Origin: an uncultured Clostridia bacterium
Lineage (GTDB): Bacteria; Bacillota; Clostridia; Christensenellales; CAG-917
Reading direction: 5' to 3'
Assembly: GCA_937885645.1 (NCBI GenBank)
Contig: CALABJ010000017.1
Span: 107,641-171,640 of the forward strand
Length of the DNA stretch: 64,000 nt
The notes beneath the pieces are model-generated. The model saw nothing but the letters and a program-made list of their open reading frames with translations. It ran no database searches and had not been told where the DNA came from. Position 1 is the first letter of the stretch, and every line of letters begins with the position of its first letter. Position numbers and translations under genes: made by a program. Positions 35,375 through 57,739 of the stretch are shown here, one piece after another.

Positions 35375-36424
35375 TTAGTGTTTCAGTTTCAAGTGTCTGT
35401 ATGCGCCAAGGGTGCAAACTCTGCCTCTAGGGGTGCGTTGAATAAAGCCCAGTTGGATGAGGAAAGGCTCGACAACGTCTTCAATGGTGGTGGCGTCTTC
35501 ACCGGTTGCTGCGGCAAGGGTGTCAAGGCCGACAGGTCCACCGCTGAACTTCTTGATGATGGTGTCAAGGATGTTTCTGTCCACAGCGTCAAGGCCAAGT
35601 TCGTCAACGTCCATAAATTCAAGGGCTTTTCTGGTCAGTTCAAGATTTATGCAATCAAGTCCTTCATATTCTGCAAAGTCACGGACACGGCGCAAAAGTC
35701 TATTGGCAATACGGGGAGTGCCACGGCTTCTGCGTGCCAGCTCAAAGGCGGCGTCCTCGTCAATGGGTATGTTGAGGATTGTGGCTGAACGGCGTACGAT
35801 TGAGGTCAACTCCTCGTTGGTGTAAGGCTCAAGGCGGAACTTGATTCCAAATCTGTCACGGAGAGGGCTTGAAAGCATACCCTCTTTGGTGGTTGCACCG
35901 ATGAGAGTAAAGTGCTTCAGTTGCATACGAAGGCTTGATGCCATTGCCCCTGCCCCCGTCACCATATCAAGGGTGAAATCTTCCATGGCAGGATAAAGAA
36001 TTTCCTCAATGTTGCGGTTGAGGCGGTGAATTTCGTCTATGAACAAAATGTCGCCCTTTTCAAGTTTTGAAAGCATTGCGCTAAGGTCCAGTGCCTTTTC
36101 AATGGCAGGACCACTGGTCACTTTCACTTGTGCGCCCATTTCGTTGGCTATGACGTGAGCAAGAGTTGTCTTTCCAAGTCCGGGAGGGCCGTAAAGCAAA
36201 ACGTGGTCAAGGGCGTCTCCTCTCTTTCTTGCGGCGTGCATATACACGTCAAGGTTGTGCTTGACCTTTTCTTGTCCAACGTAGTCCTTGAGCATTTTGG
36301 GGCGGAGTTTGTTTTCTTGATCATCGTCATCACGATAGACGGCGGTGATCACTCTGTCCTCTTCTTGCAACATGTTGTCACGATTGAATCTGCTGATAAT
36401 TCCGTTGTTTTCCATAATTTTCAA
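35375..36424 (-). CDS. ruvB: Holliday junction branch migration DNA helicase RuvB
   Basis: Intact [28 protein letters not shown] and [16 protein letters not shown] motifs, plus a RuvB C-terminal winged helix ([10 protein letters not shown]...[17 protein letters not shown]). Confidence 0.96.
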
Positions 36425-36435
36425 AGTATAAGTTG

Positions 36436-37407
36436 TTATTTTATCTCTTCATCCAATTTATATGGATGCACTTCTTCTACCGATATATTTTTCATCGCTT
36501 TTTTTGCTAAAACAATATCAATTTTCTCTAGACCCTCATATTCCGCATAGTCTTTTACTCTATCTAGCATTTTTTTTGCAACAATGGGAACTCCTTCACA
36601 ATATTTTGCGATTTCTAATTCCGCATCTTCATCAATCAATACATTCTTTTCTTTTGCAAAAATTTTAATAAATTTTTGCATTTCCTCAATAGAGTAATGT
36701 GTCAAGCGAAATTTCATGCCAAATCTTTCACGCAAATGTCTAGAAACCATCTCCTCTCTTTCTGTTGTTCCTATCAAAGTAAATGGTTTCAAATTCATCG
36801 TTAAGCACGAAGTCATCGCTCCATAACCTGCCACCATATCAATGGTGAAATCTTCCATGGCAGGATAAAGAATTTCCTCAATGTTGCGGTTAAGGCGGTG
36901 AATCTCATCTATGTACACGATATCACCCTTTTCAAGTTTTGAAAGTATTGCGCTTAGGTCAAGTGCCTTGCTTATTTCTTTTGCTTTAATAACTTTTACA
37001 TGCACGCCCATTTCGTTTGCTATTGCATATACCAAAGTTTCCTTTCCTGTTCCTGGAGGCCCATAAAGCAAGATATGATCAAGCGAACTATCTCTATTTT
37101 TAGCAGATGAAATATACACCTTTAAATTTTTGACTATCCGTTCTTGACCGATATATTCATTTAATCGGATAGTTGTTTTCTTTGTTTTGCTTTGTGTTTC
37201 TTGATTGACTGATTTATAATCAAACTTGCATTTCGGATTGTCGGAAACTATTGTCGTGACATTTCGTTCTTCTTGTGCTTTATGCACATCTTCCTTAACA
37301 TCAGTACTCGACATTGTTTGTTGTCTTATATTAACAATGTCGTCTATCCCACCATTCTGTCGGTCATCTAAATATCCTTTTTTTTCTTTTCTGCGAAATT
37401 TAAACAT
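36436..37407 (-). CDS. Divergent RuvB-like AAA+ paralog (degenerate Walker A and sensor-2 region, no RuvB C-terminal domain, new N-terminal tail)
   Basis: 323 aa that aligns to RuvB from about residue 85. It reads [10 protein letters not shown] where RuvB has [10 protein letters not shown], keeps YIDEIHRL, and reads [12 protein letters not shown] where RuvB has [12 protein letters not shown]. It ends right after the lid domain. Visibly AT-richer than its neighbours. Confidence 0.85.
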
Positions 37408-38019: not shown

Positions 38020-38517
38020 TTATCTTACTCTAAATTGTTTTGACATGCCTGCCACTTGTCCGTGACACAGCGCAACCGCAAGGGCGTCTGCTGCATCGTC
38101 GGGACGAGGGATTGCTTTGAGCCTAAGAAGCGCTTGCACCATAAGTTGCATCTGCTTCTTCTCTGCACCGCCGTAGCCAGTGATTGTCATCTTGATTTGG
38201 TTGGGGGTGTACTCATACACCTCTTCACCTAAAAGTTTGTTGCAAGTGAGGAGAATAACCCCTCTTGCCTCTGCCACCGCAATGCCTGTGGTGACGTTTT
38301 TTGAAAAGAACAATTCTTCAACGGCAACTTGGTCAGGCTTGTAGGTTTTTATGAGGGTTTCAATGCCACTCTCCACCTTGCCAAGACGGACAGGAAGGGT
38401 GTCATCTTTGGGTGTTGAAATGATGCCGTAATCGAGGACCGTGTAGTGTCCTCTGTCAGCCTCAATCACTCCAAACCCCACCGTTGCAAGACCGGGATCA
38501 ATGCCCAAAATTATCAT
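38020..38517 (-). CDS. ruvC: Crossover junction endodeoxyribonuclease RuvC
   Basis: MIILGIDPGLATVGFGVIE...VAVEELFF...DAADALAVALCH, with the catalytic acidic residues present. Confidence 0.95.
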   Translation of the reverse strand: MIILGIDPGLATVGFGVIEADRGHYTVLDYGIISTPKDDTLPVRLGKVESGIETLIKTYKPDQVAVEELFFSKNVTTGIAVAEARGVILLTCNKLLGEEVYEYTPNQIKMTITGYGGAEKKQMQLMVQALLRLKAIPRPDDAADALAVALCHGQVAGMSKQFRVR

Positions 38518-57250: not shown

Positions 57251-57326
57251 TGGTGACCCACCGGAGATTCGAACTCCGGACCATCGCATTAAAAGTGCGG
57301 TGCTCTACCGGCTGAGCTAGTGAGTC
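57251..57326 (-). tRNA. tRNA-Lys (anticodon TTT)
   Basis: Manual fold of GACTCAC-TA-GCTC..GAGC-A-CCGCA-CTTTTAA-TGCGA-TGGTC-CGGAG-TTCGAAT-CTCCG-GTGGGTC-A-CCA. Confidence 0.9.
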
Positions 57327-57357
57327 AATTTAATGCCCAGCACTTGCTGGGCATCGT

Positions 57358-57432
57358 TGGCAGGGGTAGCTGGATTTGAACCAACGAATGACGGAATCAA
57401 AATCCGTTGCCTTACCGCTTGGCGATACCCCT
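57358..57432 (-). tRNA. tRNA-Gln (anticodon TTG)
   Basis: AGGGGTATCGCCAAGCGGTAAGGCAACGGATTTTGATTCCGT...GGTTCAAATCC...CCCCTGCCA forms a cloverleaf. Confidence 0.9.
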
Positions 57433-57457
57433 ATATGTAAGGTTTTGTTTGTGTGTT

Positions 57458-57535
57458 TGGGGTGAGTAGTGGGACTCGAACCCACGGCCTCCAGGGCCAC
57501 AACCTGGCGCTCTAACCAACTGGGCTATACCCACC
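57458..57535 (-). tRNA. tRNA-His (anticodon GTG, encoded G-1)
   Basis: GGTGGGTATAGCCCAGTTGGTTAGAGCGCCAGGTTGTGGCCCTGG...GGGTTCGAGTCCC...CCCA. Confidence 0.9.
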
Positions 57536-57583
57536 ATCATTTCTGCAAGATGGGGAGAGCTTCTCCCCATACTCGCTGCTAAT

Positions 57584-57660
57584 TGGCGAGCCTGGAGGGA
57601 TTCGAACCCCCGACACACGGCTTAGAAGGCCGTTGCTCTATCCTGCTGAGCTACAGACTC
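57584..57660 (-). tRNA. tRNA-Arg (anticodon TCT)
   Basis: GAGTCTGTAGCTCAGCAGGATAGAGCAACGGCCTTCTAAGCCGT...GGGGGTTCGAATCCCTC...GCCA. Confidence 0.9.
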
Positions 57661-57665
57661 ATGTT

Positions 57666-57739
57666 TGGAGCGGGTGATGGGAATCGGACCCACGCAACCA
57701 GCTTGGAAGGCTGGGGCTCTACCATTGAGCTACACCCGC
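57666..57739 (-). tRNA. tRNA-Gly (anticodon TCC)
   Basis: GCGGGTGTAGCTCAATGGTAGAGCCCCAGCCTTCCAAGCTGG...GGGTCCGATTCCC...CGCTCCA. Confidence 0.9.

Follow-up and report, generated by a model that had tools for sequence, protein, structure and literature searches.

A headless RuvB-like gene between ruvA and ruvB in an uncultured genus of ruminant-gut Clostridia

A third gene between ruvA and ruvB

In the textbook view, RuvAB is a motor made of just two proteins. In a 64,000-nucleotide stretch of contig CALABJ010000017.1, from an uncultured Clostridia bacterium (GTDB lineage CAG-917), a third intact gene lies between ruvA and ruvB. We will call this gene X, and we will call the whole 64,000-nucleotide stretch the window. 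X is a selectively maintained accessory gene that varies among strains, and its product is an undescribed variant of the RuvB family, known only from one uncultured genus of the ruminant gut.

Within the window, ruvC, ruvA, X, ruvB, queA, and tgt form a string on the minus strand (Table 1). An earlier note on this DNA had placed a 323-amino-acid open reading frame 2 nt after the ruvA stop codon, and this is what we find: only two bases (AA) separate that stop from the ATG of X. The same note described a complete canonical ruvB after X, which is correct, but its spacing of 11 nt counts to an upstream TTG. The ATG of ruvB sits 20 nt past the X stop, and this start (MENNGII) is used in all homologs. 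We agree that no Shine-Dalgarno sequence is evident in the DNA for either X or ruvB, and we found no terminator-like site between ruvA and ruvB on the coding strand. X also starts 2 nt past the ruvA stop in contig L008, from another lineage of the genus; in a third lineage (contig L100), there is an in-frame ATG 4 nt past that stop.

According to Pfam, X contains RuvB's N-terminal domain (RuvB_N, PF05496; 1.1e-57, residues 81-235) and the RuvB AAA lid (AAA_lid_4, PF17864; 5.6e-13, residues 238-310). There was no Pfam match to RuvB_C (PF05491) in X, which ends 13 residues past the lid. This profile check bears out the earlier proposal that the C-terminal winged-helix domain is missing. By BLASTP, X is 52% identical to the neighboring RuvB, and the two are collinear from about residue 82. 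X falls below both of the NCBIfam equivalog cut-offs for RuvB (276.9 versus 282 for NF000868, and 251.8 versus 299.05 for TIGR00635), and NCBI labels a fragment of X as "AAA family ATPase."

In an AlphaFold2 model of X, built from an alignment of 50 sequences, residues 82-316 are confident. Residues 1-76 have a predicted local distance difference test score (pLDDT) of about 30 and are predicted to be disordered. The top Foldseek matches of the model are structures of RuvB (8efv and 7pbl), with a root-mean-square deviation of about 2 Å over about 230 residues.

The basic and polar N-terminal tail that the earlier note described is present, but it is about 81 rather than 85 amino acids long. The tail is missing from two of the orthologs of X (P0012 and P0005), and its similarity to the N terminus of RuvB is not significant (P = 0.34). 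The GC content of X is about 0.33-0.36, versus about 0.48 in the flanks. The statement that X is AT-richer than its neighbors holds for the gene but fails for its central stretch, because this stretch is nearly identical to ruvB.

Table 1. Genes and features at the ruv locus of the window
Feature	Position	Strand	Basis or remark
ruvC	38020..38517	-	Pfam RuvC 1.2e-48; upstream in the gene string of X
ruvA, 194 aa	37410..37994	-	Pfam RuvA_N, HHH_5, RuvA_C
Gene X, 323 aa	36436..37407, including stop codon	-	Open reading frame; RuvB_N + AAA_lid_4, no RuvB_C
ruvB, canonical, 346 aa from ATG at 36415	35375..36415	-	RuvB_N + lid + RuvB_C; NCBIfam 504 bits
N-terminal tail of X, codons 1-81, polar/basic, lineage-specific	37165..37407	-	pLDDT, alignment
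Walker A of X, G121-K122-E123	37039..37047	-	DNA reads GGA AAG GAA
Gene-conversion tract of X, codons 147-192	36832..36969	-	82-100% nucleotide identity to ruvB
Conversion partner tract in ruvB, codons 107-152	35960..36097	-	Identity to the tract of X
Presensor-1 β-hairpin of X, residues 188-205	36793..36846	-	Model strands E188-193 and E200-205
R228 of X, equivalent of the trans-acting arginine finger, retained	36724..36726	-	Residue mapping
Degenerate sensor-2 block of X: E271 and I275 replace both Arg of RSRGTPR	36583..36597	-	Alignment

Residues lost and kept relative to RuvB

We mapped the functional residues of X through gap-free alignments to RuvB proteins of solved structure and through the residues that are named in PMC9477746 and PMC10071043. 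Thr66 of Streptococcus thermophilus RuvB coordinates Mg2+ (PMC9477746). It corresponds to E123 of X, and the Mg2+-coordinating hydroxyl is lost. The codons confirm the GKE that had been read in Walker A, and E123 is invariant across all lineages of X. Both arginines of the sensor-2 block are gone, again as had been claimed: the sensor-2 arginine (Arg218 in S. thermophilus) is replaced by I275 in the window, and by leucine or isoleucine in the other lineages of X, and the preceding arginine of "SRG" is replaced by E271. A third residue that acts in cis, Arg21 of S. thermophilus, corresponds to T78, and this N-terminal segment is entirely missing from the short forms of X. The head domain of RuvB, whose arginines bind DNA (PMC9477746, PMC10071043) and which provides the principal contacts to DNA, is missing as a whole. 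The GKE, the loss of the sensor-2 arginine, and the C-terminal end point after the lid are invariant across the orthologs of X.

Other features of RuvB are kept. The Walker A lysine (K122) and the glycines of the P-loop (G-x-x-G-x-GK) are invariant, and X has a sensor-1 threonine. The Walker B residues D167/E168 and the trans-acting E185/D186 are present as well. Both pairs lie within a tract that has been converted by ruvB (see below), so the retention of Walker B tells us little about X. R228, which is invariant in X and in RuvB, corresponds to the arginine finger (R171 of S. thermophilus and R175 of Pseudomonas aeruginosa). X also retains the inter-subunit residues R105 and D286 (R52 and D233 of P. 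aeruginosa).

In RuvB, helix α3 and the presensor-1 hairpin form the interface with domain III of RuvA (PMC9477746, Wald et al. 2022); in Escherichia coli, the hairpin that contacts this domain corresponds to L135-L152 (PMC2628435). The alignment and the model show that X has both helix α3 and the hairpin, and that these are partly identical to the host's RuvB. More broadly, RuvB proteins from outside the genus have 89 positions with a conservation of at least 90%, of which X retains 64 and the host's RuvB retains 88. In the lid, X keeps only 15 of 28 near-universal positions.

X is like RuvB in its large and small AAA+ domains, its presensor-1 β-hairpin, its Walker B and ED motifs, its arginine finger, and its ruvA neighbor. 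Unlike RuvB, it is headless, it has GKE, it has lost the sensor-2 arginine and the equivalent of Arg21, and it scores below the curated cut-offs. Its rate of evolution is also about 4 times higher, its DNA is AT-rich, and only some strains have it. X should not be classed as RuvB, because it fails on the head domain, the Walker A threonine, the sensor-2 arginine, and the score cut-offs. With its AAA+ fold retained (in the model and by Foldseek) and its cis catalytic residues degenerate (in the alignment), X is a candidate for an inactive AAA+ partner, or pseudo-ATPase.

Some of these properties have counterparts in laboratory mutants. According to the summary in PMC12691675, which cites Ohnishi et al. 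(2005, J Biol Chem 280:30504), domains N and M of RuvB are responsible for binding to RuvA and for assembly of the hexamer, and domain C binds DNA. In the same summary, RuvB constructs that consist of domains N and M are reported to still bind RuvA and to interact with other subunits, whereas their binding to DNA is lost. X looks like a naturally occurring union of such a deletion of domain C with a Walker A mutant. Unlike these mutants, X evolved naturally, is separately encoded, and is under purifying selection. X is also loosely similar to inactive AAA+ subunits that work in complexes of active paralogs, such as the clamp-loader subunit δ' (HolB). It keeps the AAA+ fold with a degenerate cis site, it is encoded next to an active relative, and its role may plausibly be structural or regulatory. 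But the clamp-loader subunits are universal and essential, while X is an accessory protein of one genus and varies among strains.

Given these residues, it is plausible that X is "ATPase-impaired," as the earlier note described it. X looks like a subunit that could face RuvA and its RuvB neighbors, that is blind to DNA, and whose own nucleotide pocket is crippled.

Maintenance, polymorphism, and gene conversion

In the protein database, orthologs of X come in a 323-amino-acid kind (P0001-3, P0140, P0141, and P0143, which are 95-97% identical; P0143 matches the window's protein exactly) and in shorter kinds of 237 amino acids (P0012 and its variants) or 246 amino acids (P0005). All of them lie between ruvA and ruvB, in the string ruvC-ruvA-X-ruvB-queA-tgt-yajC, and this position is conserved in three species-level lineages of one genus.

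The earlier note had listed ways in which X might turn out to be spurious or moribund. X is not a duplication that was introduced by assembly: numerous contigs carry it, they come independently from different samples and two assembly pipelines, and its longest exact match to ruvB is 48 nt. Nor did decayed copies turn up. In the relatives, X is either intact or cleanly absent, and none of the alleles seen in the three lineages has a frameshift or an internal stop. The ratio of nonsynonymous to synonymous divergence (dN/dS), which that note had proposed to compute, is below 1. Given the intact reading frames in three lineages and ratios of 0.13-0.22, we rejected a dying duplicate as the main explanation of X.

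Between the window and L008, X has a dN of 0.32 and a saturated dS, for a dN/dS of about 0.13, as compared to 0.07 for RuvB. Within species, dN/dS is 0.22 for X and 0.03 for RuvB. The dN of X is about 4 times that of RuvB. Within the species, 13 synonymous and 7 nonsynonymous sites segregate in the core of X, and 0 and 4 in the tail. In the N-domain, pN/pS is about 0.3, compared with about 0.2 for the central tract and about 0.5 for the lid. When we shuffled the bases of X, none of 20,000 shuffles stayed free of stop codons. X is under purifying selection, which is much weaker than on RuvB.

X is not present in all strains. P0125, which is a RuvB that differs from the window's by one residue, occurs in 96 index blocks of the contig collection. 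Ten contigs, representing 18 of the 24 that were read, lack X. In ruvC, ruvA, ruvB, queA, and tgt, each of these ten shares about 97% identity with the window, and X-positive contigs of the same species are equally similar. In all ten, ruvB starts 6 nt past ruvA, and the empty site is clean, with no remnant of X. No fixed differences in ruvA or ruvB separate the X-positive from the X-free contigs, and both groups have the same RuvA and RuvB proteins. X varies in another species too, where it is present in L100 and absent from L090-L093, whose flanks are 97% identical to those of L100. It is also absent from two more sister lineages. In a tree of concatenated RuvC, RuvA, QueA, and Tgt, the X-positive and X-free lineages are interleaved.

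Between species, the alleles of X are about 58% identical and are saturated at synonymous sites, while the housekeeping proteins are 91-95% identical. For instance, X is saturated between L008 and L100, even though these hosts are 95% identical in their housekeeping proteins and ruvB is not saturated. In the window's species, X shows less diversity than the genes that flank it, and 5 of 8 contigs have an identical X. The cassette resembles a long-established accessory gene that is passed between strains and species through recombination in the conserved flanks, which goes beyond the earlier note's picture of a third gene in the operon.

The start of ruvB also has a different context in the two haplotypes (positions 36416-36435 of the window, compared with L105-L114 near position 2495). 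In X-free contigs, the stop codon of ruvA (TAG) together with GAAATT gives an AGGA-like element 7 nt before the ATG of ruvB; X-positive contigs have TTTGAAAATT. The initiation of ruvB translation may differ between X-positive and X-free strains.

The middle of X has a different history from the rest of the gene. Across residues 147-192, X is 82-100% identical to the adjacent ruvB at the DNA level, including third positions, and the remainder of the gene is saturated. The longest run of identical third positions between X and ruvB has 20 of them (permutation P < 5e-5). Among codons that encode the same amino acid in both genes, 32 of 40 are identical within the tract, versus 35 of 89 outside it (Fisher P = 2e-5). 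Within the tract, X and RuvB from the same genome are closer to each other than are orthologs of X from different species. Outside the tract, the nearest relatives of X orthologs are one another.

Going by the secondary structure of the AlphaFold2 model and the numbering of PMC9477746, the tract in the window takes in helix α3 and the Walker B strand, followed by helix α4, which carries E185/D186, and by one strand of the presensor-1 hairpin, the first. The whole hairpin is within the tract only in the L008 lineage. Within the species of L008, alleles of X differ in the tract: P0012 has SSLRMQLKH and P0148 has SVIRLPLKH, which is the sequence of that species' own RuvB. Because of the varying extent of the tract and these differences between alleles, we conclude that conversion is recurrent and ongoing.

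We also found reciprocal chimeras of X and RuvB that are joined in the common tract: P0004, on a contig of 1,478 bp, and P0024 (L101:514-1434 and L102:505-1425). In L101 and L102, the gene order is ruvA, a fusion of the N-terminal part of X to the C-terminal part of RuvB, and queA, with no separate ruvB. These chimeras are probably mis-joins by the assembler within the repeat. If they are real, then the GKE protein is the sole RuvB there.

What X may do and where it may come from

We tentatively propose that X is an accessory subunit that docks on RuvA, is blind to DNA, is impaired as an ATPase, and restrains or modulates RuvAB, most likely as a brake. The proposal combines the anatomy of X with the published structure-function data for RuvB. 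It is in keeping with the earlier suggestion of a regulator, a heterohexamer partner, or a decoy, which fits the pattern of residues: the residues that act in trans and the elements with which RuvB docks on RuvA are kept, and the contacts with ATP in cis and with DNA are lost. X would be made together with RuvA, given that only 2 nt separate the ruvA stop from its start codon. It would then dock on domain III of RuvA, take a place in the RuvB ring, or both. With no hold on DNA and probably no turnover of ATP, X would either titrate the docking sites of RuvA or stall the sequential motor, and branch migration and fork reversal would be slowed or modulated as a result. The partner-facing middle of X is overwritten time and again by conversion from the neighboring ruvB, and in this way X would stay matched to the RuvA and RuvB of its host.

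Several observations weigh against this proposal. The glycines and the lysine of the P-loop are invariant, which hints at some binding of nucleotide, so to call the site "dead" may be too strong. The lid evolves quickly, as indicated by its pN/pS of about 0.5. X is missing from all ten of the X-free contigs that were sampled in this species, as well as from sister species, so it is dispensable and possibly costly. We see no obvious benefit in a constitutive inhibitor of an important repair motor. The conversion tract may simply be where homology stayed high enough for conversion to occur; this would be self-reinforcing and is no proof of selection for matching to RuvA. And the second strand of the hairpin in the window's lineage (residues 193-207) has diverged from RuvB.

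It is less likely that X is related to conflict with phages, in defense or counter-defense. X might be a decoy or guard of RuvB that absorbs or detects phage factors directed at RuvAB, or it might slow the processing of Holliday junctions that phages need, and frequency-dependent selection would maintain its polymorphism. This could account for a polymorphism that is found in at least two species and whose flanks have no fixed differences, and for alleles that are saturated even between sister species. It would also fit with the AT-richness of X and with its having less diversity than its flanks within a species, as in a cassette that has spread recently. However, X has no effector domain, and it lies inside a core operon, with core genes for neighbors rather than a defense island. 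PADLOC gave only generic matches between X and short P-loops (IetA, 9e-9 over 60 residues). A search of viral contigs for the DNA pattern of G-x-G-K-E-T-L-[AV]-x-A-I-A gave no match, and in the phage and plasmid collections we found only ordinary bacterial ruvB and no X. (One of these records, L127 or MT838428.1, is labeled "UNVERIFIED: Bacteriophage sp.," but it is a mislabeled bacterial ruvC-ruvA-ruvB-queA segment from related human-gut Clostridia, without X.)

The same DNA pattern had one RuvB-like match in the JGI metagenomes, which we will call P0312 (L118:1476-2216, minus strand; JAEEGL011927242.1 from GCA_016648615.1). P0312 is a headless protein of 246 amino acids with GKE, and it is a singleton among 5.8 billion clustered proteins. 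Its neighbors include PAPS_reduct, a gene for a protein of 1,394 amino acids, DUF7862-4, BrxL, a cysteine-desulfurase-like Aminotran_5, HIRAN, and a coiled-coil protein of 449 amino acids with an HPD motif. We take this neighborhood to resemble a type 4 bacteriophage exclusion (BREX) island. P0312 shares with X the GKE, the N- and C-terminal limits of the short forms of X, and derived residues at positions that are conserved in RuvB (I140, A142, K143, T214, V221, C270, and N/E271). Outside the converted tract, it clusters with X (99.5% of neighbor-joining bootstraps), although long-branch attraction is possible. Unlike X, P0312 has also lost Walker B (which reads FFGNIQ) and the arginine finger, and it is not beside ruvA or ruvB. 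Its identity to X is about 41%, which is not above its identity to ordinary RuvB.

A headless GKE protein that shares derived residues with X and is beside BREX-type-4-like genes is a point in favor of a conflict role, but this link is from one singleton. A conflict role is compatible with the docking mechanism that we propose above. We are more doubtful about a broader version, in which X and P0312 belong to an undescribed family of headless GKE pseudo-ATPases in phage-host conflict, and in which X became lodged in ruvAB, mimics RuvB towards RuvA via conversion, and is held in a balanced polymorphism because it blocks, or serves as a decoy for, some phage action on the Holliday-junction machinery or some phage need for it.

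We also think it rather unlikely that X is functionless, that is, a leftover RuvB-like hitch-hiker in an essential operon that is partly rescued by conversion and is removed by recombination. The absence of X from the ten conspecific contigs and from three sister lineages fits with this idea, as do the signs of relaxed constraint (the fourfold higher dN, the pN/pS of the lid, and the 25 near-universal positions that are lost) and the absence of purifying selection on the tail. Drift towards AT is also what would be expected under weak selection. But a functionless gene would not be expected to remain full-length in three lineages despite synonymous saturation, given that none of the shuffled sequences stayed open. 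Also, pN/pS is 0.2-0.5 in every region, including outside the converted tract, and the polymorphisms in the core are mostly synonymous. Finally, the derived features of X (GKE, the loss of the sensor-2 arginine, and the C-terminal end point) are invariant, and no frameshifted copies were seen.

X is very unlikely to be an active ATPase, in which Glu123 would replace threonine in handling Mg2+ and X would be part of an alternative or mixed motor, with RuvB supplying the DNA-binding heads. In support of this, the P-loop, the Walker B DE, the sensor-1 threonine, and the arginine finger are present, and the chimera in L101 and L102, if real, is the sole ruvB-like gene between ruvA and queA. But three nucleotide contacts in cis have been lost together, and Walker B is within the converted tract. 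The chimeras are on contigs of 1.5-2 kb and include both reciprocal types (P0004 and P0024), which is the pattern expected of mis-joins. Furthermore, Hishida and colleagues are said to have found in 1999 that substitutions of the Walker A threonine or lysine abolish the function of RuvB and are dominant negative.

That the cassette acts only in cis, by altering translational coupling and the ratio of RuvA to RuvB while the protein itself is irrelevant, seems highly improbable: the contexts of the ruvB start in X-free strains (the AGGA-like element) and X-positive strains (TTTGAAAATT) and the lack of an evident Shine-Dalgarno sequence for X or ruvB are in its favor, but it leaves the purifying selection on the amino acids of X and the invariant derived residues unexplained, and other X-free species likewise lack a clear Shine-Dalgarno sequence before ruvB.

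If X is a mimic of RuvB, then it would be a natural probe of how the hexamer is controlled by domain III of RuvA and by signals between subunits, and it would be the first natural candidate for a regulator of branch migration that is encoded within the operon. The pattern is a clean case of an accessory paralog that is kept compatible with an essential neighbor. It brings together a clean presence/absence polymorphism within species, alleles that predate the species, and a mosaic structure in which one tract evolves in concert with ruvB.

X is known only from one uncultured genus of ruminant-gut Clostridia. Among the matches listed in a scan of GTDB genomes, 80 ruvB loci from diverse species representatives, there was no tandem RuvB-like gene. 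A full HMMER scan of 1.84 billion representative sequences gave only two clusters of X before the scores dropped to those of ordinary RuvB. A profile search with the X-specific C-terminal part found only P0121, which is a fragment of a known X. In the literature that we searched, we found nothing about a bacterial gene between ruvA and ruvB or about a degenerate paralog of RuvB.

Some candidates with high ranks in the profile searches were rejected. P0164 (476 amino acids) and P0166 (514 amino acids) might appear to be tandem paralogs, but they are mis-assembled RuvB proteins with exact internal self-duplications. P0165 (1,230 amino acids) is a different protein rather than a relative of X. 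It has two tandem degenerate modules, each with the large and small domains of RuvB (the first with GKR and IDEID and the second with GKT), and it is headless. It also has a long unrelated C-terminal region, so it represents another RuvB-derived architecture.

The earlier note described X as a paralog inserted between ruvA and ruvB, but we would not regard its origin by duplication as settled. Outside the tract, X does not cluster with the RuvB of its own genus, and the similarity of its tail to RuvB is not significant. A recent tandem duplication in situ is unsupported for the same reasons, and these results leave either an old duplication in place or arrival from elsewhere as the origin of X. 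The sole hint of duplication is that ATTATGGAAAACAA is present at both ends of the cassette in L100. This 14-bp direct repeat is at positions 391-404 and 1172-1185 of L100 and includes the start of ruvB. It provides a route for precise excision, and it could be a trace of how the cassette originated. In L100, the in-frame upstream ATG would also give X a RuvB-like start (MEN...).

Elsewhere in the window, five tRNA genes are clustered at 57254-57739 on the minus strand, and these are its sole Rfam matches at the gathering threshold.

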